A stretch of 32,000 nt of DNA, from positions 1,320,001-1,352,000 of the forward strand of contig NC_022359.1 of NCBI RefSeq assembly GCF_000354175.2. Reading direction: 5' to 3'. Below are positions 4,170-16,924 of the stretch, one piece after another (positions within the stretch are counted from its first letter, which is position 1; every line of letters begins with the position of its first letter). The position numbers and the translations under genes are program-made. Source of the DNA: Vibrio alginolyticus NBRC 15630 = ATCC 17749 (GTDB lineage: Bacteria; Pseudomonadota; Gammaproteobacteria; Enterobacterales; Vibrionaceae). Under the pieces are notes generated by a model that saw only the letters and a program-made list of their open reading frames with translations, had not been told where the DNA came from and made no database searches.

Positions 4170-5159
4170 ATGATTAAAAATATTCTTTTACTATGCGGCG
4201 GTGGCTCTTCTGAGCACGAGATTTCATTATTGTCTGCAAACTTTGTCGAACAACAACTAAATCTTATTGAAGACGTTCACGTTACACGCGTAGAAATAAA
4301 AAACGAAGGTTGGATGACCAACCAAGGTGAGTTGGTTTACTTGGATCTCAATACCAAGCAGTTGTGCTCAAGTGAATCTAATCAAACCATTGATTTCATC
4401 GTGCCTTGTATACATGGTTTTCCTGGCGAAACAGGCGACATTCAATCTCTGTTTGAAATCGCAGGTATTCCTTATCTTGGCTGCGGGCCAGAAGCGAGTA
4501 GCAATAGTTTCAATAAAATCACATCTAAGCTTTGGTACGACGCTATCGGCATACCCAATACGCCATACTTATTCTTAACGCGAAACGATGAAGAAGCTCA
4601 CGTTCAAGCTCATAAAGCCTTTGAAAAGTGGGGAAAAGTTTTTGTTAAAGCCGCTCGCCAAGGCTCTTCCGTTGGCTGTTACAGTGTCACAGAAAAAGAC
4701 AAGCTTTCTAATGCAGTAAATGATGCTTTTGGGTTTTCTGACCAAGTGTTGGTTGAGAAAGCAGTAAAACCTCGAGAACTTGAAGTTGCTGCATATGAGA
4801 TGAATGGCCAACTACATATCACTAAGCCAGGCGAGGTCATCGCGCCTGATGGTGCTTTTTACTCGTACGATGAAAAGTACAGCAGTTCAAGTCACTCGCT
4901 CACAGAAGTTGAGGCGAAGAATCTAACTCAAGTACAATTAGATTCCATCCAACACGCGTCAGAGACGGTATTTAAACAAATGAATCTTCGTCATTTATCT
5001 CGTATCGACTTTTTCCTAACGGAAGATGATGAGATTTACTTAAACGAAGTAAACACATTTCCAGGAATGACTCCGATCTCAATGTTCCCTAAAATGCTTC
5101 AAAACAACGGGCACAAATTTCATGAGTTCTTGGAAGATTGTATAAACAGTGCAAAGTGA
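4170..5159 (+). CDS. ddl: D-alanine--D-alanine ligase
   Basis: 329 aa. The N-terminus ILLLCGGGSSEHEISLLSA and the C-terminus YLNEVNTFPGMTPISMFPKM are characteristic of the ATP-grasp Ddl family. Confidence 0.9.
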   Translation: MIKNILLLCGGGSSEHEISLLSANFVEQQLNLIEDVHVTRVEIKNEGWMTNQGELVYLDLNTKQLCSSESNQTIDFIVPCIHGFPGETGDIQSLFEIAGIPYLGCGPEASSNSFNKITSKLWYDAIGIPNTPYLFLTRNDEEAHVQAHKAFEKWGKVFVKAARQGSSVGCYSVTEKDKLSNAVNDAFGFSDQVLVEKAVKPRELEVAAYEMNGQLHITKPGEVIAPDGAFYSYDEKYSSSSHSLTEVEAKNLTQVQLDSIQHASETVFKQMNLRHLSRIDFFLTEDDEIYLNEVNTFPGMTPISMFPKMLQNNGHKFHEFLEDCINSAK

Positions 5160-6207: not shown

Positions 6208-6235
6208 ATTTAACATAATATACATAATGCGCACT
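6208..6235 (-). other. dif: Chromosome dimer resolution site dif (XerC/XerD target), which also forms the left attachment junction of the prophage
   Basis: The plus strand reads ATTTAACATAA-TATACA-TAATGCGCACT. Its reverse complement is AGTGCGCATTA-TGTATA-TTATGTTAAAT. Both 11-nt arms are identical to the V. cholerae dif1 arms as I remember them, and one central nucleotide differs. Confidence 0.85.
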
Positions 6236-6578
6236 GATATAGGGGTTCCTGTGGACTTGCAATCACTAAGGCCAATCCAGCACAAGCCATTGAAATACTT
6301 GATAATCCAAGTCCGTTAAACTTTTTTCCTATGTTCTGCCATAGTGTCTGCGCTTCGTGCGTTTTTGCTTTATCCATCGCTAAGCCAATCAGAGCCTTTT
6401 CTTTGTCTTCACCAATAGCTTCAGCAAGCATAAGTATCTGATTTTCATTGAGATAACTTCGACCTTTTCTTACTTCTGTGAGCATTTGAGGGCTTACACC
6501 TAGGTCATGAGCAATCTGCTTGTATTGAATGTAGTTCATTTGCTCTTTATAAGCATCAATGAGCTTGTTTGTGTACAT
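6210..6578 (-). CDS. Phage HTH-type regulator (putative repressor), divergent from the rep operon
   Basis: The segment IQYKQIAHDLGVSPQMLTEVRKGRSYLN resembles a helix-turn-helix. I prefer the start at ATG 6578 (GAGGA upstream) over the track's GTG 6599. The last 9 codons, stop included, lie inside the dif site. Confidence 0.6.
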   Translation of the reverse strand: MYTNKLIDAYKEQMNYIQYKQIAHDLGVSPQMLTEVRKGRSYLNENQILMLAEAIGEDKEKALIGLAMDKAKTHEAQTLWQNIGKKFNGLGLSSISMACAGLALVIASPQEPLYQCALCILC

Positions 6579-6626
6579 TTCTGCTTTTCCTCTAATCACG
6601 CTATTGGACTGATTTTAGTCTTTTAG

Positions 6627-6690
6627 TACAGATTTTGCTGTGTTGACGGTACAGAAATATCTGTATTTAATCACTACAGAATTTACTGTA
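6627..6690. promoter_or_regulatory. Three TACAG-N6-CTGTA inverted-repeat operators overlapping a rightward promoter
   Basis: O1 is 6627-6642 (TACAGattttgCTGTG). O2 is 6650-6665 (TACAGaaatatCTGTA). O3 is 6675-6690 (TACAGaatttaCTGTA). TTGACG at 6643-6648 and TTTAAT at 6666-6671 are 17 nt apart, and O2 fills that spacer. Confidence 0.6.
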
Positions 6691-6777
6691 TCAGACCGCC
6701 TTAGCTTTGGGCGTTTGCCCTTGACGCTTTCGCGCTAGGCTTTGGCGGTCGCTCTCTCAACTAGTCAAGGTGTTGCA

Positions 6778-7401
6778 ATGAAAAAACTTTCTACTGAAAA
6801 TGCGATCATTATCGATACAGAAACTACTGGCTTAGGCGCTGACGCAGAAATTGTTGAGTTCACTGCTATCTGTGCTCACACTGGCAAAGTTATCGTGAAC
6901 GAACTTGTTAAACCTACATGTTCGATTCCTGCTGACGCAACGGCTATTCATGGCATCACCGATGAAGACGTTAAGGATGCGCCCGACTTTCATTTAGTCT
7001 TCTCAAACCATTTTCTTCCGCTTCTTAACGGTCGTCCAATCATCATCTACAACTCAGATTTTGATACGCGCTTAATTATCCAATCTTTGGATAAGCACTG
7101 TAACGCTGCTTACGTCCAATCCGTTCACGATTTGTTTTTCAAGTTCTGTGTTCCTCAATGCGCAATGCTTTGGTATGCAGAGTTCTTTGGTGTTTGGAAT
7201 GAACACCATGAAGATTACAAGTGGCAAGCACTTTCCAACGCTTGCGCTCAACAGAATGTTGATGTGTCTGACTTAACGGCGCACCGTGCACTGGCTGATT
7301 GTGAAATGACTCGTCGATTGATTCACACCGTTAACTCACAGATTGAAAACCAAAACAATCAAAACTGTGACAGCGTCACTAAGCCTAGTTCAGAGGCTTA
7401 A
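6778..7401 (+). CDS. DnaQ-like DEDDh 3'-5' exonuclease
   Basis: Exo I is IIIDTETTGL. Exo II is IIIYNSDFDTRLI. Exo III is HRALADCEMT (H-x4-D). I set the start at ATG 6778 (MKKLSTEN) rather than the track's TTG 6742. Confidence 0.8.
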   Translation: MKKLSTENAIIIDTETTGLGADAEIVEFTAICAHTGKVIVNELVKPTCSIPADATAIHGITDEDVKDAPDFHLVFSNHFLPLLNGRPIIIYNSDFDTRLIIQSLDKHCNAAYVQSVHDLFFKFCVPQCAMLWYAEFFGVWNEHHEDYKWQALSNACAQQNVDVSDLTAHRALADCEMTRRLIHTVNSQIENQNNQNCDSVTKPSSEA

Positions 7402-7404
7402 TCC

Positions 7405-7620
7405 ATGAACGAAGCTCAAATCATCTATTACGACTTGCTGCCTGACTACACGGTTTCTGTGTTGGTCAAAGGTTGCGACGAATGGGATTTGCTTAAATCC
7501 ATGTCTCATCTTGAGTCTTGGGCTTCGTCTCAGTTCGCTTCTTATGAGTTGGTGTCCATCACCAACACGACCGTTGAACAACGTATCAATATGGGGGTGT
7601 TCGATGACTACTGCAACTAA
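7405..7620 (+). CDS. Hypothetical phage protein (71 aa) between the exonuclease and Rep
   Basis: The ATG lies 3 nt after the exonuclease stop, and the 3' end overlaps the Rep start by 17 nt. I recognise no domain. Confidence 0.45.
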   Translation: MNEAQIIYYDLLPDYTVSVLVKGCDEWDLLKSMSHLESWASSQFASYELVSITNTTVEQRINMGVFDDYCN

Positions 7621-8752
7621 CATCCTCAAAAAGTTCGATGAGCAAAGCGTTCATATTGATTACCTGTGTTTTACGTTTGCCGTGAAAGACTTACGTCATT
7701 GTCATGATGCGGTTCGTCGATTGCACAAGCATGAGGAATACAAAGGCTTTGCCAAATCAGGACTGTTACAGCGTCACTGTCGTGCGCCTAAGTTCCCTGC
7801 TCCACCTGTATTTAATCCGACCGTCGCTAAGACGTCTGAAGACATTGAAGCGTACAACAAAGCATTTGATATCTGTTACCGCAACTACTTGGAAGACTGC
7901 TTGCGCATCTTCACCAATCAAGTGCTTGGTTTGTCGCTGTCTGCGCCTCGCGGTTTGGGTTTCCAGTTCTACACCGAATCCATGAAACTGACTTCGCCAG
8001 ATGGTGAGGACTTCTGCGGCTTCGTTGGTATCGGCGGTAACAATGACACGGTGCATTTCCAAATCAACGGAACGGGATGCAAGCATGTATTTGCCCGTCG
8101 TCCTACGTGGTCGCTACATGACTGGCTGACCAATGTACTTGGTGTGCAAACTCTGGCGCGTGTTGACTTGGCTTATGACGATTACGACGGGATTTTCGAT
8201 TGCGAATACGCTTACAAGGCGTGGCGCGACGACTGTTTCAGAACGGCTGAACGTGGCCGTGGTCCTGTGCTTCATGAAGATATGACCATTGCCAGTATCG
8301 GCAAAGACGGCAAACCGATTTACACCAAAGAACAATACTCGATTGGTTCGCGTACCTCGCGTATTTACTGGCGTATCTACAACAAGGCGCTTGAGCAGAA
8401 ACTCGCAAACACGGGTCTTGTCTGGTATCGCTCTGAAGTTGAGCTTAAAAAATGGAATGTTGATGTGTTGCTGAATCCAGCTGGCGCGTATGCCGCGCTC
8501 AATGATTTCGCAGCCTCGATTTCTACTGCAAAGAAATTCAATACCAAACCTGTCCCGACGAAACGCGCGGCGTTAGACCTGTTGGCCTCTGCGCACTGGA
8601 TGCGCCGCCAGTACGGGAAAATTCTGAACTCTTTAATCGAATTCCATGAGGGCGACATTGAAACCGTGGTCGGTTCCCTTGTCCGTGATGGAACTAAATT
8701 CACCTTCCCCGATACCTACGGCAAGTTGGTGACTCACATATTGGAGACTTAA
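7604..8752 (+). CDS. Rolling-circle replication initiation protein (RstA/pII-like, Rep_trans type)
   Basis: The N-terminal VHIDYLCFTF motif, the size and the position before the ssDNA-binding and coat genes all fit. ATG 7604 follows a GGGGG Shine-Dalgarno-like run. The alternative ATG 7544 would give 402 aa and TTG 7511 would give 413 aa. Confidence 0.8.
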   Translation: MTTATNILKKFDEQSVHIDYLCFTFAVKDLRHCHDAVRRLHKHEEYKGFAKSGLLQRHCRAPKFPAPPVFNPTVAKTSEDIEAYNKAFDICYRNYLEDCLRIFTNQVLGLSLSAPRGLGFQFYTESMKLTSPDGEDFCGFVGIGGNNDTVHFQINGTGCKHVFARRPTWSLHDWLTNVLGVQTLARVDLAYDDYDGIFDCEYAYKAWRDDCFRTAERGRGPVLHEDMTIASIGKDGKPIYTKEQYSIGSRTSRIYWRIYNKALEQKLANTGLVWYRSEVELKKWNVDVLLNPAGAYAALNDFAASISTAKKFNTKPVPTKRAALDLLASAHWMRRQYGKILNSLIEFHEGDIETVVGSLVRDGTKFTFPDTYGKLVTHILET

Positions 8753-8755
8753 CAA

Positions 8756-9109
8756 ATGGCTAAATCCGTTTTTGTACTTGGCATGGATATCACTTGGAAC
8801 TCAGCACGTGGTGACAGTGCTCAACTGAACGTGTCACGACCTCTACGTGAAATCAACTCAGAGAAATTCAAACGCCGCACTATCGGTGAATCCGGTGATG
8901 TGAATCCACAGTGGGACCAACCGTTGATGATTGATCATCAATACGCCCTATTACTTGAACGTACGGGCGCCCTCGTTCCTCGCCGTGAATACCAATTGCG
9001 TTTGGAGATTAACCCAGACGATCCATTGGCGGGCGCCATCGTTACGGAACTCATCCCTGTGGATGACGACATCAAGAAACATTTTGAAGCCTCGTTAAAG
9101 GCTAAATAA
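8756..9109 (+). CDS. Putative ssDNA-binding protein (pV analogue)
   Basis: 117-aa ORF directly after Rep. The call rests on position in inovirus genomes only, with no motif checked. Confidence 0.5.
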   Translation: MAKSVFVLGMDITWNSARGDSAQLNVSRPLREINSEKFKRRTIGESGDVNPQWDQPLMIDHQYALLLERTGALVPRREYQLRLEINPDDPLAGAIVTELIPVDDDIKKHFEASLKAK

Positions 9110-9120
9110 GGAATTTCGTT

Positions 9121-9366
9121 ATGCCTGTGTGTGCTTTACCTAACGCGGACGGTTTTCTCGCTGTCGTTCCTGACATTGAAGCGGCTTCATGCCGTGGTTA
9201 TGTCATGGTCACGGCTCAAGAATATGACACGTTAATGAGCTACACACAGCTGACTCCAGGAGAGATATCTCAAGCGTTCGGCTTGGGTTTCACCTTGGTG
9301 TTCGTTGGCGGATATCTCTCAACTTACGCCATCAAGATGGCAATACGTTTAATAAAACTACTTTGA
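9121..9366 (+). CDS. Hypothetical phage protein with a hydrophobic C-terminus (81 aa)
   Basis: The C-terminal hydrophobic stretch is FGLGFTLVFVGGYLSTYAI. It occupies a conserved position before the major coat gene. Confidence 0.5.
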   Translation: MPVCALPNADGFLAVVPDIEAASCRGYVMVTAQEYDTLMSYTQLTPGEISQAFGLGFTLVFVGGYLSTYAIKMAIRLIKLL

Positions 9367-9376
9367 GGAATCTGTT

Positions 9377-9610
9377 ATGAAACGTCTAAACGCGCTTAAA
9401 AAGTTCGGTAAACAAGCGGTGGCAACCGTCACTGTTGCGGTGCTTTCTGTCCCTGCTATGGCGGCGGAAGGTGGTGCCGCTGACCCGTTTTCCGCTATCG
9501 ACTTATCTGGTGTGGCAACCAAAATCGGCGCGGCAGGTCTGGTGATTGTCGGCATTACTATGGCTTACAAATCCATCACTCTTGCTAAGCGTGCTGTGAA
9601 CAAGGCTTAA
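9377..9610 (+). CDS. Major coat protein (pVIII-like)
   Basis: The signal peptide ends at ...VPAMA|AEGG. The mature protein of about 48 aa has an acidic N-terminus (AEGGAADPFSAIDL), a hydrophobic core (AAGLVIVGITMA) and a basic C-terminus (KSITLAKRAVNKA). Confidence 0.85.
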   Translation: MKRLNALKKFGKQAVATVTVAVLSVPAMAAEGGAADPFSAIDLSGVATKIGAAGLVIVGITMAYKSITLAKRAVNKA

Positions 9611-9614
9611 GTTT

Positions 9615-9707
9615 ATGTTGGCCGTTCTCCACGATGTCCAACTCATCGTCTTTGTGCTTTTGGGTGGCATTGCCGGATACGTGGCCAGCCAAAACTTTAG
9701 AGGATAA
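9615..9707 (+). CDS. Small hydrophobic protein (30 aa), candidate minor coat protein (pVII/pIX-like)
   Basis: It is absent from the track because it is under 60 aa. The sequence is MLAVLHDVQLIVFVLLGGIAGYVASQNFRG. It starts 5 nt after the coat gene stop. Confidence 0.4.
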   Translation: MLAVLHDVQLIVFVLLGGIAGYVASQNFRG

Positions 9708-9730
9708 GGGGGCTTCGGCTCCCTTTTTTA
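9706..9730 (+). terminator. Rho-independent terminator after the coat genes
   Basis: GGGGGC-ttcg-GCTCCC (one G-U pair, UUCG loop) followed by TTTTTT. This placement is typical of inoviruses. Confidence 0.7.
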
Positions 9731-9743
9731 TTGGTTTAATACA

Positions 9744-11219
9744 ATGAATCACTATCTCCGTTTTTTTATTGCCCTTGTTATTCTATGCGCCAGTCATCAT
9801 ACGTATGCTTTAGAAGCACGTATTAGTCATATGCAAATGAGGGGGTGTGGCTCTCAAGGTGATTGGGTTGACCCTTACAAGGTGAATACTTGTTTTTTGG
9901 ATACTGGGTATTTCGACTCATGCACATTTGAGAAGACATCATATGCTAATGCTCGCGATCCCTATCAAACAGTTTGTGATAATGGGCTCGGTCTTTCTTA
10001 TTCTGAGGTTCGTTGTCCAGAAAATAGCGAATTTGACCCTTCAACCTTACGTTGTAAATCGGTTTGTGAATATGGCAAGAACCCTGACGGCACTTGTATG
10101 GACGTGTGTCAGTTTAAAAAGTCCATTGATGAAATCAAATCGCTTCAGTGGTTGGCTTATGTCTATGGCGAACAAGTGACAGGGTCATGTTACGGCGATT
10201 ATGGCGCAACCCGTTGTGAATTGGAGCGTACTCCTAGTGATAGTACGCTGTGTACGGGTGTTGATTCCGGCCAATGGACACAAAACACCATCTGTCATGG
10301 TAACTTTCAATTCACAGGCAACCAGTGTGAAGGCGGTACACTCTTCTGGGGTAAAGATGGCCCTGACACCCCTATTATTCCTGATGACCCCATTCATGAC
10401 CCTGACGACCCAACAGGCGACATCGAAGACCCTAGCGTATTACCTGATGGCTCAACCAATACGGTGAATCCACCGGATACCGACAGTGAGCCAGACGTGG
10501 AAGAGCCAGACACCGATGAATCGACAGACACGGCAGTTCTGAAAGCCATTACTGGAATGAATAAGGACGTCAACAAAGCACTAAACGACATGAACATCGA
10601 CATCAATCAAGCCAGTGCTGACGTTCAAAACCAAATCATTGCGCTGAATGCGTCGATGGTCACCAACACGCAAGCCATTCAAAAGCAGCAAATCAACGAC
10701 AACAAGATTTACGAAAACACTAAGGCCCTTATCCAACAAGCGAATGCTGACATCACCACGGCCATGAACAAGAACACCAATGCCGTTAATGGTGTGGGTG
10801 ACGATGTAGAGAAAATTGCAGGGGCAATGGATGGTATCGCGGATGAAGTTTCCGGTATTTCTGACACCTTAGACGGTATCGCAAACACAGATACGTCTGG
10901 TGCAGGTACGGGTGGTACGTGTATCGAGTCCCAAAGTTGTACCGGATTTTATGAGTCGGGCTATCCCGATGGCTTAGGTGGTTTGGTGTCCGGTCAGTTA
11001 GATGATCTTAAACACAACACCATCGACAACTTTGTGAACTCGTTTGGTGACCTCGACTTATCCAGTGCCAAGCGCCCTTCTTTCGTGCTCCCTGTGCCGT
11101 TCTTCGGTGACTTCAGTTTTGAGGAGCAAATCAGCTTTGATTGGGTGTTCGGTTTTATTCGTGCGGTGCTCATCATGACGTCAGTGTTTGCGGCGCGTCG
11201 TATTATTTTTGGAGGTTAA
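9744..11219 (+). CDS. Minor coat/adsorption protein (pIII-like)
   Basis: 491 aa. It has a signal peptide (MNHYLRFFIALVILCASHHTYA), a Cys-rich N-terminal domain, a D/P-rich linker (PDDPIHDPDDPTGDIEDP...), an N/Q-rich helical region and a C-terminal membrane anchor (FIRAVLIMTSVFAARRIIFGG). Confidence 0.75.
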   Translation: MNHYLRFFIALVILCASHHTYALEARISHMQMRGCGSQGDWVDPYKVNTCFLDTGYFDSCTFEKTSYANARDPYQTVCDNGLGLSYSEVRCPENSEFDPSTLRCKSVCEYGKNPDGTCMDVCQFKKSIDEIKSLQWLAYVYGEQVTGSCYGDYGATRCELERTPSDSTLCTGVDSGQWTQNTICHGNFQFTGNQCEGGTLFWGKDGPDTPIIPDDPIHDPDDPTGDIEDPSVLPDGSTNTVNPPDTDSEPDVEEPDTDESTDTAVLKAITGMNKDVNKALNDMNIDINQASADVQNQIIALNASMVTNTQAIQKQQINDNKIYENTKALIQQANADITTAMNKNTNAVNGVGDDVEKIAGAMDGIADEVSGISDTLDGIANTDTSGAGTGGTCIESQSCTGFYESGYPDGLGGLVSGQLDDLKHNTIDNFVNSFGDLDLSSAKRPSFVLPVPFFGDFSFEEQISFDWVFGFIRAVLIMTSVFAARRIIFGG

Positions 11220-11220
11220 T

Positions 11221-11535
11221 ATGGATTGGTTAGTCGATTTATTTAACAAGCTGTTGGTGTTCCTCTATCAGCTTTTAATCTCACTGGTCAACATGCTCAA
11301 AGACCTGTTCTTTTGGGCGGTTGAGCAAATCATGGCAATGGTGAATCTGTTGCTCTCTGGTGTGTTCTCCCTATTCGCACCGGTCGATATGAGCCAGTAC
11401 ATGACCAGCATTCCGCCTACGGTGGCTTGGGTTATGGCGGCGGTCGGTGTGCCTCAATGCCTGTCTATCATTCTGGCCGCTATTACTGTGCGCTTGATGC
11501 TGCAATTGATTCCGTTTACGAGGTTAGGCTCATGA
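11221..11535 (+). CDS. Hydrophobic minor coat protein (pVI-like)
   Basis: 104 aa, starting at ATG 11221 just after the pIII stop. It has several hydrophobic helices and lies directly before the zot-like gene. Confidence 0.6.
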   Translation: MDWLVDLFNKLLVFLYQLLISLVNMLKDLFFWAVEQIMAMVNLLLSGVFSLFAPVDMSQYMTSIPPTVAWVMAAVGVPQCLSIILAAITVRLMLQLIPFTRLGS

Positions 11536-12674
11536 TATACGCCATAGCAGGAAGACCAGGTGGCGGTAAAACCTATGAGGCGGTTGCCTATCACATTATT
11601 CCGGCCATTAAGGATGGCCGCAAAGTCATTACCAATATCACCTTAAACATTGATTGGTTCGTTAAGGTGTTTGGTGAAGACGTTCGAGAGCTCATCAAAA
11701 TCGTGGATGGCCGTTTAACGGATTTTGGTTCAACCTCACGTCCGTTCAGTCAGATTGAAGACTACTCGGACGAATGGCGTAATGAAAAAGGACAAGGACC
11801 ACTTTATGTGGTCGATGAGGCGCACATGAGCTTGCCAAGTCGAGGCTTGGCCGCGCCCATTCTAGAATGGTACTCAATACACCGTCACTACGGTGTCGAT
11901 ATCATCTTGCTCACGCAGAACATCCGCAAAGTGCATCGAGACATTAAGGACATGATTGAAGTGACTTACCGATGCACAAAGAACACGGCCATGGGCTCAA
12001 CCAGTTCTTACACCAAGAAAGTGCAAGATGGTTGTGCCGGTGAAGTGGTAAACACCTCTACCCGATTTTATAAGTCAGAGTACTTCCCGTTCTATAAGAG
12101 TCATTCGCAATCCAACAAGCAAGTGCAGGAAGCCGAAGCAAAAGACATTCGCCCGTTCTGGAAGCGTTGGCCTGTCGTCGGAACGGGGGTGCTGCTATCG
12201 CTTGGATTGGTTTTCAATATCTGGGCTTGGTGGCCGGAGCCAGAGCAACCGCCCGACCCCGTTAAACCACCACAACCAGTACAAGCGCAGCTGCCTGACG
12301 GAACGCCAACGGTAGATACGGCAGAAACCAAAGCGAAGAAGAAAAAGAAAGCATCAGGGTTCGGGCCTTTGGAAGATTACGACTTCTACATCACCGGATA
12401 CGCAAAGCAAATCGCCTACGCCAAACGGCTGAAGTATGCTGCCGAACTCGACCGTGACCTGACGTTCTACAAGATATACATCGATGTGTACGATGGCCGC
12501 GACAAGCTATTCAGTTTCGATCATCTGGACTTGGTAAAGATTGGGTATCAGTTCGAAGTGTTGAGCGACTGCGTATATCGAGTGACTTGGGAAGAAACAG
12601 AAAGGATCTTCACGTGCGGCCAAAGAGAAAAGCCATCAGACATATTGCAGCAAAACATGCCTGTCCATATCTAG
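11532..12674 (+). CDS. zot: Zot/pI-like phage assembly ATPase
   Basis: The start MIYAIAGRPGGGKTYEAV carries a Walker A motif. LYVVDEAH is the Walker B motif. A central TM segment (WPVVGTGVLLSLGLVFNIWAWW) and a P-rich linker follow. ATG 11532 overlaps the pVI-like stop. The protein is 380 aa. Confidence 0.85.
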   Translation: MIYAIAGRPGGGKTYEAVAYHIIPAIKDGRKVITNITLNIDWFVKVFGEDVRELIKIVDGRLTDFGSTSRPFSQIEDYSDEWRNEKGQGPLYVVDEAHMSLPSRGLAAPILEWYSIHRHYGVDIILLTQNIRKVHRDIKDMIEVTYRCTKNTAMGSTSSYTKKVQDGCAGEVVNTSTRFYKSEYFPFYKSHSQSNKQVQEAEAKDIRPFWKRWPVVGTGVLLSLGLVFNIWAWWPEPEQPPDPVKPPQPVQAQLPDGTPTVDTAETKAKKKKKASGFGPLEDYDFYITGYAKQIAYAKRLKYAAELDRDLTFYKIYIDVYDGRDKLFSFDHLDLVKIGYQFEVLSDCVYRVTWEETERIFTCGQREKPSDILQQNMPVHI

Positions 12675-12775
12675 ACCGCTCGCCACAGCGTCGAAGCTAG
12701 CGCAGTCTGCGTAGACCGAGGAAGCGGAACATGTAGGACACCAAACCTTGGCACTTCCACACCGAACTTAATCAT

Positions 12776-12800
12776 GGGGCTCTATACGAGCCCTTTTTTA
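12776..12800 (+). terminator. Rho-independent terminator after the zot-like gene
   Basis: GGGCTC-tatac-GAGCCC followed by TTTTTT. Confidence 0.7.
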
Positions 12801-13041
12801 TTACGTGCGCGGTATTGCGAGCATTTTGGGAGGGGCCCGCTTTGCGGGAGGGACCTAAAAGCGGAGCAAACCCCCGAATCTGTATTACGGGGGTAAATTC
12901 CACGATTTCTTCAGCCTCCTCCCTGCCTATGCAACAAAGTTAAATTGTTGATATGCTTATTTAGTAACTAAGGCTTTGAGCATATCCTGTAAAATCAGTC
13001 ATATGGCAACGTGAATAACATTAGATAATTTGGAGAGATTT

Positions 13042-14382
13042 GTGAGATTAACAGTTCCAGAGTTACAGCTTAATGATGGTGAGTACTTTTCGACAGAAAG
13101 GGACATATTCAATAGAAAGCCGTTTGGAGATCACCTTTATAACTTAATTAATAATTCAGAGGAAAATTTGGTTTTAGCTCTGGATTCACAATGGGGGGAA
13201 GGGAAAAGTACATTCATAAAAATGTGGACTAATGAGAATAAACATAACCGTGAGGTACCTTTAGAAACTATATACTTTGATGCATTTCAAAATGATTACC
13301 AGAAAGAGCCATTTTTAGCTTTAGCATCAGAGGTTTATGAGTTACTAGAAGATAAAGCAACCACTAAGACGGCAGAGTTCAAAAAAAAAGCAGCGAAAGT
13401 ATTTAAAACGTTTAGTCGGGGCATGATCAAAACAGGAGTTCGTATTGGTACTGCTGGACTTGTAAATGATACTTTATTAGATCAAGCTGAAAAAGATATT
13501 TCAGAGCTAGTGTCAGAACAAGTTGATTCAATAATATCTTCTAAATTTGAGAGTTCTAAAGCTGATAAATTGGCTCTTAAGAACTTCAAAGAATTTCTTT
13601 CAGATATCGCCCTGAATCATACTTCAAGCGGAAAAATTGTATTTGTGATTGATGAACTCGACCGTTGCAGACCAGACTTTGCGCTAGACTTATTAGAAAA
13701 TATCAAACACTTATTCTCTGTGTCGGGCGTAACATTCTTACTTGTTATGAACAGAAGGCAATTGGAAGAGTCTGTAAAATGCAGATATGGAAATGGTATT
13801 GACTCAGTGACTTACTTACAAAAGTTCATTGATGTTTGGCTATCTTTACCTCGTAAGACGCCAGCTCTATCTGAACAAGATGACGGAGTTACTTATTTAA
13901 CTAATTCTTTTAAATTAATGGCAGCTGAAGGGAACGTAGACAATAGAGGAGCATTATCAGCAATTACAGACTTAGTAAGACACTTAAAGCCTTCATTTCG
14001 CGACATTGAACGGATATTAACTTACTTTGCCCTTATTGAAAATTCGCGTAGTTATGCTTTTAACGAATTCTATCAGGATATTATGGGCACTGTGTGTTTC
14101 TTGAAAGTTACCAACCCTAAACTACTAGATAATATTATGAATGGCCGTGCGTCGAGTAAAGATGTTCTTGAACATCTTCAGCTAACAAACCAAAACCTAC
14201 GTTCTGAAGGAGATCCACTTAAGTATTTAGCATTAGAGATCGAATACGATTTATCAGCGCCAGAAAGAAAAAATGAAATCGAATCGAATGAGAGGATAAA
14301 TTTGCGAGGCTACCCCTCTGGTTCAGTGAATATTTTTAAACGCTTCATAGAGGAACTTAGCAACATATACCCTCAATATTAA
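13042..14382 (+). CDS. KAP-family P-loop NTPase (soluble variant), phage cargo gene
   Basis: Walker A is DSQWGEGKSTF. The KAP-type Walker B block is IVFVIDELDRCRPDFALDLLENIKHLF. No hydrophobic insertion lies between the two motifs. GTG 13042 lies 4 nt after GGAGAG, and the track's TTG 13030 is the alternative start. Confidence 0.8.
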   Translation: MRLTVPELQLNDGEYFSTERDIFNRKPFGDHLYNLINNSEENLVLALDSQWGEGKSTFIKMWTNENKHNREVPLETIYFDAFQNDYQKEPFLALASEVYELLEDKATTKTAEFKKKAAKVFKTFSRGMIKTGVRIGTAGLVNDTLLDQAEKDISELVSEQVDSIISSKFESSKADKLALKNFKEFLSDIALNHTSSGKIVFVIDELDRCRPDFALDLLENIKHLFSVSGVTFLLVMNRRQLEESVKCRYGNGIDSVTYLQKFIDVWLSLPRKTPALSEQDDGVTYLTNSFKLMAAEGNVDNRGALSAITDLVRHLKPSFRDIERILTYFALIENSRSYAFNEFYQDIMGTVCFLKVTNPKLLDNIMNGRASSKDVLEHLQLTNQNLRSEGDPLKYLALEIEYDLSAPERKNEIESNERINLRGYPSGSVNIFKRFIEELSNIYPQY

Positions 14383-14397
14383 ATTCGCTTTTTGATT

Positions 14398-14421
14398 AGG
14401 CTCCCTAAGGAGCCTTTTTTA
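14398..14421 (+). terminator. Terminator between the convergent KAP gene and the 122-aa gene
   Basis: AGGCTCC-ctaa-GGAGCCT followed by TTTTTT. Confidence 0.7.
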
Positions 14422-14787
14422 TTGCACTAACCCCTTTAATACTCTTGCATATTTTAGGATTTGGTGTGCAATTTTCATATCATTTGAAGCGCCTAATTCT
14501 AGCAAAGCGACCCCAATCAATACTTGCTGCGCAGTCACCAACTGTCCTGTTGGAAGCTCTAATCGATCATGCCTCATTACGAAGTTTTCCCAATCTTCAC
14601 AGGAGCTCAATTCCCTACCCTTATTCATCCTCATTAAGCGTTTACACTCTGGCGGAATGGATTTCCCTTTATCCCACTCTTTGACCGTTCTCACAGTTTT
14701 TAAACAAAGTTTGGCAGCTTCTTCGACGGTTAAACCACATTCAAATTCACGAAAAATATAGTTTTTAGTCATTTCGTGATACTTCAT
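14419..14787 (-). CDS. Phage regulatory/DNA-binding-like protein (122 aa, possibly DUF3653-like)
   Basis: The ECGLTVEEAAKLCLKTVRTVKEWDKGKSIPPECKRLM segment resembles an HTH. ATG 14787 is preceded by GAGGGA. Its composition resembles the phage core, not the AT-rich KAP gene. The family assignment is from memory only. Confidence 0.5.
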   Translation of the reverse strand: MKYHEMTKNYIFREFECGLTVEEAAKLCLKTVRTVKEWDKGKSIPPECKRLMRMNKGRELSSCEDWENFVMRHDRLELPTGQLVTAQQVLIGVALLELGASNDMKIAHQILKYARVLKGLVQ

Positions 14788-14839
14788 TGAATTGTCCCTC
14801 AAAAGAGAGACATTTTATAGGATACGCATATGCAATCGT

Positions 14840-14868
14840 ATTCAACATAAGCGCCCATAATACGAACT
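14840..14868 (-). other. dif-like site, right attachment junction of the prophage
   Basis: ATTCAACATAA-GCGCCCA-TAATACGAACT is in the same orientation as dif at 6208. The XerD-side arm matches 10/11 and the XerC-side arm 9/11 when a 7-nt spacer is allowed. Confidence 0.65.
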
Positions 14869-14874
14869 TAAGAG

Positions 14875-15108
14875 TTAGAAGATTAGCATTGGTGAAGTCA
14901 GTTTAGTTACACCGTATTTGGCTGTTGCTGCTTTGCAAGCCTCATCAGCTGTCTTGTATGGACCGTGAACTTCGATTTCACCACAGCGACAACTTGATAA
15001 TAACCAGTCATCAACTTTAAAACCGTGTGGCTGATTAAGTTCCTTCATTGTATCTTGGGTTACGTTCAACACTGTACACGTTGGTTCTGCATCTTGCTCA
15101 TTCAACAT
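14875..15108 (-). CDS. Hypothetical small protein (77 aa)
   Basis: An ORF only, with no recognisable domain. It sits directly right of the dif-like site. Confidence 0.35.
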   Translation of the reverse strand: MLNEQDAEPTCTVLNVTQDTMKELNQPHGFKVDDWLLSSCRCGEIEVHGPYKTADEACKAATAKYGVTKLTSPMLIF

Positions 15109-15205
15109 GAGTCAACATGGACACGCATTTGCTTAACCCAAACGTATAAGTACTAGATTACCTTTATAGGAACAAAGAATCTAACAGATGTAAACTCTCT
15201 ACTTT

Positions 15206-15415
15206 TCAATCTATACCTAGATCTTTCTTCATATGTTCACTCAACTCGTTAGTGGTTCTTACATTAATCTTATGTTTGCAATGATGGATTCTCAACTCTT
15301 CACCAAATAATTTTACTAGTGATTTGGTATACAAAGTACTAATATTATTTATTGTTCTATACAATGTATCTTTCTGATAAACAGATCTTTTCGAATTTTG
15401 TATTGCAGTCTTCAT
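15206..15415 (-). CDS. Possible LuxR-type HTH fragment (69 aa)
   Basis: ELRIHHCKHKINVRTTNELSEHM loosely resembles the recognition helix and C-terminus of LuxR/FixJ HTH domains. The ORF overlaps the upstream ORF by 59 nt in another frame. Confidence 0.3.
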   Translation of the reverse strand: MKTAIQNSKRSVYQKDTLYRTINNISTLYTKSLVKLFGEELRIHHCKHKINVRTTNELSEHMKKDLGID

Positions 15416-15707
15416 ATTTTAATATCCTTACACGTTTAACTTTATAATTTAAAAAATCAATTTCAACTTTTATTATTACTTTTTTCGATATGTAATGAGT
15501 CATTATCAATGATGCACAATCAACAATTAAATCACCCGAATCCAACTTAGTAATTTCACGAGACAAACTTTCTATTTTTAAATCTTTATTTTCTATATTT
15601 AATCCGATTGAGTTAATTCCTTCAGGATATCGGTTTAACTTAATATCCAATATGGTTTTATTAAGATAGTAGTCTGCCATTATTTCATGGCGGCTTTTAA
15701 ATATCAT
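15357..15707 (-). CDS. Hypothetical protein, possibly the N-terminal part of a frameshifted LuxR-family regulator
   Basis: ATG 15707 (MIFKSRHEIM) follows a strong GGAGGGGG Shine-Dalgarno run. The locus is extremely AT-rich. The ORF ends in ...LSERYIV, where a LuxR HTH would normally begin. Confidence 0.4.
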   Translation of the reverse strand: MIFKSRHEIMADYYLNKTILDIKLNRYPEGINSIGLNIENKDLKIESLSREITKLDSGDLIVDCASLIMTHYISKKVIIKVEIDFLNYKVKRVRILKYEDCNTKFEKICLSERYIV

Positions 15708-15788
15708 TGTCCCCCTCCGATGATGCAAGTTATACTTTCCCACCAGTTAAAAGACAACGTGACTCAGAGTTGCAAAAAGGTAACAATC

Positions 15789-16628
15789 ATGGAATTGATG
15801 AACAATGAGCTGATCTGCTTTGCAGCCATTTGTAAACACCTCTCTCTTACAGAGGCATCAAAAGAACTTGGAAAGTCTAAAGCTCAAGTCAGCAGGCAGC
15901 TAGCAGCATTAGAAAAACAACTTGGCGTAACACTCGTCCACAGAACAACAAGGAAACTCGTTTTAACTGATCATGGCGAAAGCATTAGAGAGCTTGCTAT
16001 CAAGACGTTAGAGAGTTTGCACGAGTTAAATTACAGAGCTAGCTCGTTGAGTGAATGCATTGATGGAAAGTTTAAAATCACAATGCCCAACTCTATAGCC
16101 TCTTCTATTTTTGGTTCTGTTCTTAAAGACTTAAAAGAACGATATCCAAAAGTTGATTTTGAAATATCGTCAAGTAACAATGTAGAAAATTTATTAGAAA
16201 GCAACGTAGATTTAGCGATTAGGCTTAATAATGTTATTGATGACACTCTTATTGCACATAAAATTGGTGATTATAGTGATGTTTTGATATCTAGGGTAAG
16301 TAATGCCAACAACAAAACACTATTAATCTACAAACATCATTCGAATAAGGAATCAATTAAAAATCAATATACTGATGTTATCGAAGTTGATAACACCTCT
16401 ATTTTAATAAACTTTGCTTCTGAGGGAGTTGGGGTTGGTGTCATTCCAAACTATCTTATTAAAAGTAACTATATAGACAAAAACATCCGAATATCGCAAA
16501 CTTTTGATATAGAACGTTCCATGTATATTGCCTACCCTTATCAAAACCCTTTGCCAAGAAAGCTAGCTGAGATATCTACTTTTATTAGGTCTGAGTTATC
16601 ACAAGTATTGAAGAGTGAGTCATTTTAG
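15789..16628 (+). CDS. LysR-family transcriptional regulator
   Basis: The N-terminal HTH is FAAICKHLSLTEASKELGKSKAQVSRQLAALEKQLGVTLVHRTTRKLVLTDHGE. I set the start at ATG 15789 rather than the track's 15687. Confidence 0.8.
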   Translation: MELMNNELICFAAICKHLSLTEASKELGKSKAQVSRQLAALEKQLGVTLVHRTTRKLVLTDHGESIRELAIKTLESLHELNYRASSLSECIDGKFKITMPNSIASSIFGSVLKDLKERYPKVDFEISSSNNVENLLESNVDLAIRLNNVIDDTLIAHKIGDYSDVLISRVSNANNKTLLIYKHHSNKESIKNQYTDVIEVDNTSILINFASEGVGVGVIPNYLIKSNYIDKNIRISQTFDIERSMYIAYPYQNPLPRKLAEISTFIRSELSQVLKSESF

Positions 16629-16924
16629 GGCGGTTGTTCAGATTTAGAATTTTGCGTTGTCTACTCAACTAGGCCTAACGCTAATCTTTGTAACATATTG
16701 TTTCGGCGGTATTTATTAACACCCCCATCTTTATGCTTGCTATCACAATGTGAGATGCTCTGCCGTCTTGTTATCAAGGTTTTGCGTGGAATAAATCACG
16801 TGGGGTAAACGATAGATTGACTTACATTAAAATTTTCATCAAAAGCAACTTTATATAAAATTGATTTCATACCAATCTATGTGTATCTTCTACCCATATC
16901 CCCACAATAACCAAGGAGAATGCC

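Follow-up and report, generated by a model that had tools for sequence, protein, structure and literature searches.

KAP NTPase proteins can be potent anti-phage defenses (PMC13552941). Filamentous Vibrio prophages have a variable locus enriched in defense genes (PMC11630473), and the Vipa inoviruses have two variable regions with functions described as "not discernable" (PMC10790759). Here we analyze a KAP-family gene in a 32,000-nucleotide stretch of Vibrio alginolyticus NBRC 15630 = ATCC 17749 (contig NC_022359.1, positions 1,320,001 to 1,352,000, forward strand), referred to below as the window; all coordinates are those of the window unless a comparison locus is named by its L number. The gene lies in a Vf33/Vf12-type dif-integrated inovirus prophage of ≈8.7 kb (6208–14867). 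We show that it is an accessory single-gene cargo module of this prophage, and the best-supported reading, which we consider somewhat probable from sequence comparison, is that it encodes a single-protein anti-phage defense.

The cargo occupies the right end of the prophage, where the following features are found.

12776–12794, + strand: terminator-like hairpin 3' of zot.
12867–12906, + strand: conserved hairpin forming the left border of the cargo slot (CCCCCGAATCTGTATTACGGGGG at 12871–12893, then TAAATTCC).
12907–13041, + strand: AT-rich unique leader, 34.8% G+C, with the Shine–Dalgarno sequence GGAGAG at 13033–13038.
13042–14382, + strand: gene for a soluble KAP-family P-loop NTPase of 446 aa.
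14398–14421, + strand: terminator hairpin (14398–14415) and T-run, the conserved right flank of the slot.
14419–14802, − strand: f237 ORF9-like gene, 127 aa, related to XafT/VC1465 below the cutoff (phrog_1668; NCBIfam NF040522).
14840–14867, − strand: right dif-like junction (GTTCGTATTATGGGCGCTTATGTTGAAT).
12867–14868, no strand assigned: recombining module of 2,002 bp comprising the hairpin, KAP gene, terminator, XafT-like gene and att side.

The prophage core is 95% identical to Vf33 at the nucleotide level across 7404–12901. This homology breaks off at 12901; it is picked up again in vB_Vipa71 from 14395 and in Vf33 from 14612. Between zot and the leftward gene there is hence a replaceable slot, which the KAP gene fills. 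The left-border hairpin is common to Vf33, vB_Vipa36, vB_Vipa71 and the inovirus at L115 and is near-identical in fs1-type phages of Vibrio cholerae (ND1-fs1, L005); all hairpin-bearing phages compared diverge within ≈10 nt 3' of it. The right border is the terminator hairpin at 14398–14415, which abuts the stop codon of the leftward ORF9-like gene. A hairpin consensus, CCCCCGA(A/G)(T)CTGTAT(T/C)ACGGGGG followed by TA(A/G)ATTCC, is kept across two inovirus genera, Villovirus and Fibrovirus (window 12871–12901; L001 4710–4732; L192 1004–1025; L194 1593–1614). In VGJphi, the annotated "distinctive region" lies upstream, not downstream, of this hairpin, a candidate packaging signal or replication origin.

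The KAP gene is absent from all 26 related phage records, including Vf33, Vf12, VfO3K6, VfO4K68, VALG_phi6, VALG_phi8 and the Vipa phages, and the top protein match from the phage collection shares 33% identity. The slot is empty in ND1-fs1, with ≈50 nt from hairpin to terminator, and holds an OLD-family nuclease (PADLOC Old, 2.4e-67) and a PLD-like protein in vB_Vipa71, two small genes of unknown function in vB_Vipa36, and a DUF2726 protein with a second KAP protein at L115. The latter is 37% identical to the window protein and also belongs to PADLOC family PDC-S20, on a backbone whose Rep and Zot are 99% identical to those of the window. An earlier reading of the locus from its letters (hereafter the sequence-only reading) had taken the gene for cargo of a dif-integrated Vf33/f237-type inovirus, dispensable and lodged in its variable slot, and had called for a search for cassette replacement in related prophages; both are borne out, as the same locus carries an OLD nuclease, a second KAP gene, small genes or nothing. 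Two details of these slots were noted in passing. The L115 DUF2726 gene (6561–7115) lies on the − strand just upstream of the KAP gene and could be a partner or separate cargo. In vB_Vipa71 (L002), the right-border sequence, consisting of the terminator and the 3' end of the ORF9-like gene, occurs twice, after each cargo gene (8935–9055 and 9837–10295), and its cargo may have been stacked by recombination at that border.

The open reading frame runs from 13030 to 14382 on the + strand and encodes 450 aa from a TTG codon. The GTG at 13042, 4 nt past GGAGAG (13033–13038), is the likelier start and yields the 446-aa form deposited as AGV20105.1, "P-loop ATPase [Vibrio alginolyticus]". Pfam KAP_NTPase (PF07693) matches residues 29–333 over profile positions 1–286 of 293 (E 3.7e-39; 135.2 bits against a cutoff of 20), and the hallmarks quoted in the sequence-only reading, GEGKST and IVFVIDELDRCRPDFALDLLENIKHLF, are present. 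Walker A (WGEGKST) falls at residues 51–57 and Walker B (IVFVIDELDRCRPD) at 199–212, in columns that are invariant in 30 homologues. Transmembrane helices in the NTPase domain are typical of many prokaryotic KAP members, not obligatory. Here they are absent, as had been claimed; the top Kyte–Doolittle 19-residue mean is 1.31, and the segment between Walker A and Walker B is predicted to be helical and soluble. The protein is predicted to be cytoplasmic, with no signal peptide or transmembrane segment. A near full-length match to PDC-S20 (PDLC04959; E 7.5e-84, residues 11–401 over profile positions 7–390 of 464) is accompanied by matches to three further PDC-S20 models and to phrog_8614, a family of unknown function (1e-155).

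An AlphaFold2 (AF2) model (pLDDT 73, pTM 0.69) consists of a P-loop core, a low-confidence soluble helical hairpin (107–193) that occupies the place of the membrane helices of other KAP proteins, and an all-helical C-terminal part. The best Foldseek match in the PDB is RdrA, the ring ATPase of RADAR (E 1e-6, TMq 0.45–0.49), followed by ORC/Cdc6, clamp loaders and MuB. No nuclease, protease, TIR or other effector fold was found in the model-based structure searches; a search of BFVD structures returned generic AAA+ and clamp-loader matches only, and a PDB sequence search gave nothing meaningful (top match TsaE, E 0.55). The NTPase core spans residues ≈29–270 and is followed by a variable helical C-terminal part (271–446). 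Identity to the integron-cassette clade of relatives described below falls from 75 to 92% over residues 1–270 to ≈55% over 271–360 and 33 to 41% over 361–446, a pattern that reads as a conserved engine with a fast-diverging C terminus, as in sensor NTPases.

We favor a function in anti-phage defense or exclusion because of the PDC-S20 match, the defense genes in sister slots, the integron-cassette relatives and the purifying selection documented below. The KAP protein would protect the lysogen, and hence the prophage, against other phages or mobile elements. Its N-terminal NTPase (≈29–270) may act as a nucleotide-dependent oligomeric switch, a proposal made because Walker A, Walker B and the DELDRCRP signature are kept and the nearest solved fold is RdrA; the all-helical C-terminal part (271–446) would recognize a trigger derived from the invader. 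Since the protein has no nuclease, protease, TIR or membrane domain, the effect would come from the NTPase itself or from an unlinked host factor. Candidate outputs are NTP consumption, the sequestering or remodeling of an invader or host complex, and action through an unlinked host partner.

Several points weigh against a defense function. The validated KAP defenses all differ from the window protein in architecture, as detailed at the end of this text. PDC-S20 is a candidate and not a validated family, as neither a paper naming it nor an experiment on any member was found in the literature. With no visible effector domain, the killing or blocking step is conjecture. The link of homologues to defense genes in their neighborhoods is modest and was counted without a proper background control. 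On the supporting side, in 37 chromosomal neighborhoods of distant homologues, scattered defense genes are found (Septu PtuA, a type III restriction endonuclease, AriA-like, DrmD) and no partner family occurs in more than three, which marks the gene as a single-gene unit; the family likewise occurs both as a one-gene integron cassette and as one-gene phage cargo. A last point against is that the leader at 12907–13041 contains no convincing sigma-70 promoter: the scan did not exceed shuffled sequence in matches and placed none in the leader, so that expression of the KAP gene in the lysogen is only putative. Transcription could start in the leader or read through the terminator at 12776–12794.

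CTXphi carries ctxAB in the equivalent position after zot, and the window gene could by analogy serve lysogenic conversion of host physiology or virulence. It shares the position of the classic conversion genes and is carried by pathogenic Vibrio species. The protein is nevertheless predicted to stay in the cytoplasm, its family signature and genomic contexts indicate conflict systems, and nothing ties KAP NTPases to virulence; conversion of the ctxAB kind is accordingly very unlikely.

The KAP gene has 35.7% G+C, with 29.5% at third codon positions (GC3), vs. 48.2% in the phage core (GC3 46–56%). A composition foreign to the phage had been claimed from hand-counted lines, and recounting reproduces those values exactly (38.3, 30.0, 55.0 and 48.3%). 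Among same-size windows across the 32 kb, the gene falls in the lowest 6.4% of G+C; the host flank at 15000–16500 is lower still (30–37%), and the contrast is therefore with the phage and not with the whole neighborhood. The gene had also been credited with its own Shine–Dalgarno sequence and terminator. The former stands (GGAGAG, 13033–13038), and the latter belongs to the conserved backbone flank: the hairpin at 14398–14415 starts 16 nt past the stop codon, and vB_Vipa71 has the same flank behind a different cargo gene. Folding of the zot–KAP intergenic DNA is weak (z-score −1.9).

The claim that the gene is a recent insert is contradicted by its distribution. The identical 446-aa protein is found on at least 23 contigs, both in Vf33-type prophages at the window locus and in f237-type prophages, with a Zot of 461 aa and a pIII-like protein of 486 aa, at the dif locus on the matP side. 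Window 12867–14868 is 99.8% identical to two f237-type prophages (L186 and L190) with structural genes that are 76% identical or unalignable. An 89%-identical sister protein is found in f237-type prophages of Vibrio parahaemolyticus, where the whole 2-kb module is 89.7% identical (L182). Comparison of the window gene with this phage-borne sister gives a ratio of nonsynonymous to synonymous substitution (dN/dS) of 0.136 at dS 0.39, indicative of purifying selection; relative to the cassette clade, synonymous sites are saturated. From these comparisons, the KAP gene appears to be an old, selected resident of a backbone-hopping module, foreign in composition, rather than a recent one-off insert.

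Spread between inovirus backbones as a 2-kb unit from hairpin to att site is thus directly visible, and the window lineage, which lacks the attC recombination site of integron cassettes, would represent an older, domesticated resident. Both ends of the module coincide with a conserved sequence (hairpin and att), which is what homologous recombination would predict. We infer exchange by homologous recombination at these conserved borders or, alternatively, by CTX-type hybrid replication across tandem prophages. In the CTXphi model, hybrid replication would give the same module borders if the plus-strand origin lies at the hairpin. Both inovirus backbones co-occur in V. alginolyticus strains (PMC7761403).

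These data also bear on whether the gene could be a neutral passenger, a cassette-derived hitch-hiker in a tolerant slot that benefits neither phage nor host. Such a passenger would sit well with a slot that takes many unrelated genes and with the lack of a detected promoter. It is hard to reconcile with a dN/dS of 0.14 over a dS of 0.39, with a reading frame kept intact in the 100%-identical copies on at least 23 contigs, in the 89% sister clade and on two backbones, or with the packaging and replication cost that weighs on small filamentous genomes, and we regard it as the least probable of the explanations considered.

The leftward gene next to the KAP gene, previously taken for a regulator, resembles instead a Xer-activation factor (XafT/VC1465) at a level below the cutoff: it matches NCBIfam NF040522, the VC1465 family of Xer recombination activation factors, with E 1.5e-12 and 47.6 bits (cutoff 70). 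The gene lies beside the att site in all sister phages and looks, from sequence, like part of an integration module rather than a repressor. In the circular phage, the ORF10-like regulator would be followed closely, on its own strand, by this ORF9-like gene, so that the two leftward genes become separated when the phage integrates at the att site.

Close linkage to this integration module, together with purifying selection on phages, could indicate that the NTPase serves the phage's own life cycle or persistence, in replication, assembly, Xer integration or excision, or as an addiction function. The structural kinship to loader and initiator ATPases (ORC/Cdc6, clamp loaders, MuB) points the same way. 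Such a role is nonetheless quite unlikely: propagating phages with a near-identical backbone (Vf33, Vf12, VALG_phi8) lack the KAP gene, other phages hold unrelated genes in the slot, and the family thrives in integron cassettes outside phages.

To place the window protein in the context of its relatives, homologues were collected broadly. Those of ≈444 aa are widespread, with 1853 proteins at E ≤ 1e-10 among those scored. A scan of genome contigs gave no relative above 51% identity among the matches listed, and the contexts of close relatives were taken from exact-protein look-ups. Proteins of a clade with 58 to 70% identity are encoded in true superintegron cassettes in Vibrio harveyi, Vibrio vulnificus and V. 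parahaemolyticus (e.g., L003, L173, L180), and each cassette-clade copy is flanked by ≈125-nt attC repeats within long arrays. In another lineage, the gene stands alone in the chromosome and has no attC. At L176–L179 (8001–9335), a 67%-identical KAP gene forms a clean one-gene insertion between pyruvate:ferredoxin oxidoreductase and DUF465 genes, with no attC; this copy is found on many metagenome contigs (89 index blocks).

A V. cholerae homologue with 69% identity occupies the same slot of fs1/VGJ-type prophages beside rtxA, on two backbones (L005–L008). It also matches PDC-S20 and carries a complete attC 3' of its stop codon (E 2.5e-26 with an nhmmer profile built from 18 Vibrio attC copies), with attC homology ending exactly at the crossover between G and TT. 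This phage copy is close to a V. harveyi cassette (dN 0.028, dS 0.26). That the KAP family shuttles between the superintegron arrays of Vibrio and the slots of inoviruses is shown by an fs1-type prophage with an intact attC and a sister phage with an empty site.

A cassette with its attC is thus found in the inovirus slot of relatives, and integrase-mediated insertion and a cassette ancestry of the window copy are proposed by extension. More broadly, filamentous vibriophages may capture superintegron cassettes and shuttle defense genes between strains and species, the window KAP gene being a domesticated cassette that lost its attC and rides on the Xer-activation/att module; we view this as a serious possibility that falls just short of probable. 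The last ≈25 nt of the leader at 12907–13041 resemble the 5' end of the integron cassettes: the window has ttagataatttggagagatttGTG and the cassettes have ttatgtgatttaggagaaattttGTG, a likeness that could reflect translation signals alone. A short leader with a ribosome-binding site straight after the G|TTRRRY crossover is a feature of integron cassettes. Telling against this ancestry, the nhmmer profile finds no attC in the window, where the backbone terminator follows the stop codon after only 15 nt, and attC is also absent in all phages of the 100% and 89% clades. The proposed descent of the window copy would draw on homology and on the short 5'-leader resemblance, with synonymous sites saturated. 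The idea that the window copy was captured directly and recently from a superintegron was rejected, given the lack of attC and the saturated synonymous sites.

Other cassette-like arrangements were encountered in phages. In vB_Vipa36 (L181, MT188663), a full VCR-type attC (7460–7585) follows a 103-aa ORF, and a truncated attC corresponding to its first 43 nt (8401–8443) follows the next ORF; the arrangement suggests two integron cassettes whose attC sites have decayed to different extents. The 41-kb record MK672802.1 (Vibrio phage Va_90-11-286_p16) harbors a 33%-identical KAP gene and three attC-like places at ≈30984–33584, and represents either a tailed prophage with integron cassettes or superintegron DNA called as prophage. 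A search of IMG/VR with the single KAP protein returned no relatives, and an alignment-based search found 386 on IMG/VR contigs. On contigs of at least 20 kb, 15 of 64 relatives lie within 1.5 kb of a contig end, vs. 5.8 expected. KAP contigs of 7 to 10 kb in IMG/VR were rejected as further inoviruses, as they carry ORFs of 500 to 900 aa with no Zot or Rep matches; only L115 is an inovirus.

Inter-element competition must be weighed on the same evidence. Here, the NTPase would exclude, or interfere with, rivals for the dif site, the pilus receptor, or the replication and assembly machinery, be they other filamentous phages, satellites (IMEX) or plasmids. A single 2-kb unit joins the KAP gene to the integration module (XafT-like gene and att), V. 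alginolyticus harbors two inovirus types together, extra small elements occur beside such prophages (L183), and PifA, a plasmid-borne KAP relative, excludes another element. Against this, the family is common in lineages that have no inovirus, in the form of integron cassettes, stand-alone chromosomal genes and genes on contigs the size of a tailed prophage. Its target is thus more likely to be general than specific to inoviruses; this more specialized role is unlikely, and broad anti-phage defense remains the reading that we prefer. The extra element at L183 (12078–13585; V. parahaemolyticus), ≈2 kb with a DUF3653 protein and small ORFs, lies between the KAP prophage and host genes and could be a satellite integrated at the same dif site.

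The remainder of the prophage comprises the following features; core gene calls were transferred from the identical locus L187.

6208–6235, − strand: left dif-like junction (AGTGCGCATTATGTATATTATGTTAAAT; pattern search, one match vs. zero expected).
6210–6599, − strand: leftward regulator, f237 ORF10-like, with DUF3693 and helix-turn-helix (Pfam DUF3693, E 5.6e-21; phrog_638, transcriptional regulator).
6742–7401, + strand: DEDDh (RNase_T) 3'-5' exonuclease, cargo at a second site (Pfam RNase_T, E 9.6e-18).
7604–12674, + strand: inovirus core consisting of rep (Rep_trans), single-stranded DNA-binding protein, small coat proteins, pIII-like, pVI-like and Zot/pI (Pfam, PHROG).
9744–11219, + strand: pIII-like gene of the core.
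11532–12674, + strand: Zot/pI gene of the core.

The core genes are in canonical inovirus order with dif-like sites at both ends, which places the element among the IMEX of the Vf33/f237 group. Homology to vB_Vipa71 begins at 6211, at the left prophage edge, beyond which the host Ddl gene is found (4170–5159, AGV20092.1). The exonuclease also matches PADLOC DEDDh (E 3.2e-27) and PDC-S48 (E 3.5e-14). It sits at a second variable site, between the regulator and rep, its presence or absence varies independently of KAP among sister prophages, and it is present in a V. cholerae prophage (L006). At the right edge, phage homology stops at 14855–14875. The stretch at 14875–16700 was rejected as part of the prophage on this ground and because nothing in the phage collection matches it. 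Just beyond the edge, two small leftward ORFs (14875–15743) give strong matches to PHROGs 31984 and 21679; the stretch may be left over from another dif-associated element, or it may be host DNA that prophage predictions took in. The flank at 15000–16500 (30–37% G+C) is followed by a LysR gene and matches no phage record. No Rfam family was found anywhere in the window.

If the defense reading is true, the Vibrio host owes resistance to other phages to a dif-integrating phage of ≈8.7 kb that is shed chronically, which bears on phage therapy and strain succession in V. parahaemolyticus and V. alginolyticus. PDC-S20 would then have a compact model protein, 446 aa long and effector-less, whose C terminus comes in a series of natural variants. 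Of greater novelty is the origin of inovirus cargo in integron cassettes, which is demonstrated for the relatives and would extend to the window copy by descent. This link suggests an exit route on virions for the large pool of Vibrio superintegron cassettes, and it is mechanistically plausible since integrons and these phages both recombine via folded single-stranded DNA. No paper on integron cassettes within filamentous phages was found in the literature, the library searched being incomplete.

How does the window protein compare with known KAP systems? PifA of the F plasmid, QatA of QatABCD, Tmn and the Enterococcus EF_KAP share with it a KAP core with Walker A and B motifs and carriage on mobile elements, and are validated anti-phage proteins (PMC13552941). 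They differ in architecture. PifA has ≈720 aa, and the window protein matches only positions 36–258 of the 720-position profile, corresponding to the NTPase core. QatA has a profile of ≈600–650 positions and acts with QatBCD; the window protein scores 57.6 bits against the NCBIfam QatA cutoff of 600, over the core only, and QatB, QatC and QatD are absent beside the KAP gene, which is flanked by zot and the XafT-like gene. Transmembrane helices are present in Tmn and EF_KAP, and the latter also has a 322-aa C-terminal effector region; none of these is found in the window protein. RdrA of RADAR is the best solved-structure match, which in the model suggests a ring-forming sensor ATPase, but it shares 12 to 15% sequence identity, has ≈835 aa vs. 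446, and works with the deaminase RdrB; no RdrB-type deaminase gene is found in the prophage. With PDC-S20, a PADLOC single-gene candidate family, the likeness is closer: a near full-length match to the hidden Markov model, ≈445 aa, and a stand-alone, soluble KAP NTPase. Membership names the gene without explaining a mechanism, and the window protein is filed under KAP/PDC-S20 only. The sequence-only reading knew of no characterized KAP NTPase in an inovirus, and none was found in the searchable literature.

As cargo, the KAP gene compares with ctxAB in CTXphi and ORF8 in f237, which likewise follow zot, precede the att/regulatory region and have a lower G+C than the core; the vB_Vipa phages place their cargo in this position as well. 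ctxAB encodes a secreted toxin and ORF8 a protein of unknown function, whereas the window cargo is a cytoplasmic NTPase of a conflict-system family. A second comparison is with the SALINs, cassettes inserted outside integrons by attC x attG recombination, from which attC is easily lost later (bioRxiv 10.1101/2022.09.11.507474). The V. cholerae inovirus KAP gene conforms to this description as a lone cassette with a full attC away from any integrase. The window copy differs in lacking attC and would be at most a domesticated descendant, and a filamentous phage as recipient is not discussed in that work. Finally, the general idea of a defense-enriched variable locus is already published (PMC11630473), and the window slot fits it. 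Like that locus and the "distinctive region" of Vf33, f237 and VGJ, it lies near the prophage border beside a regulator-like gene, is highly variable and is enriched in defense genes; exchange by homologous recombination was proposed for that locus as well. The published survey, carried out with DefenseFinder, makes no mention of a KAP NTPase, an integron or attC. Relative to it, the present analysis sets the borders of the slot to the nucleotide and identifies integron cassettes as one source of its cargo.

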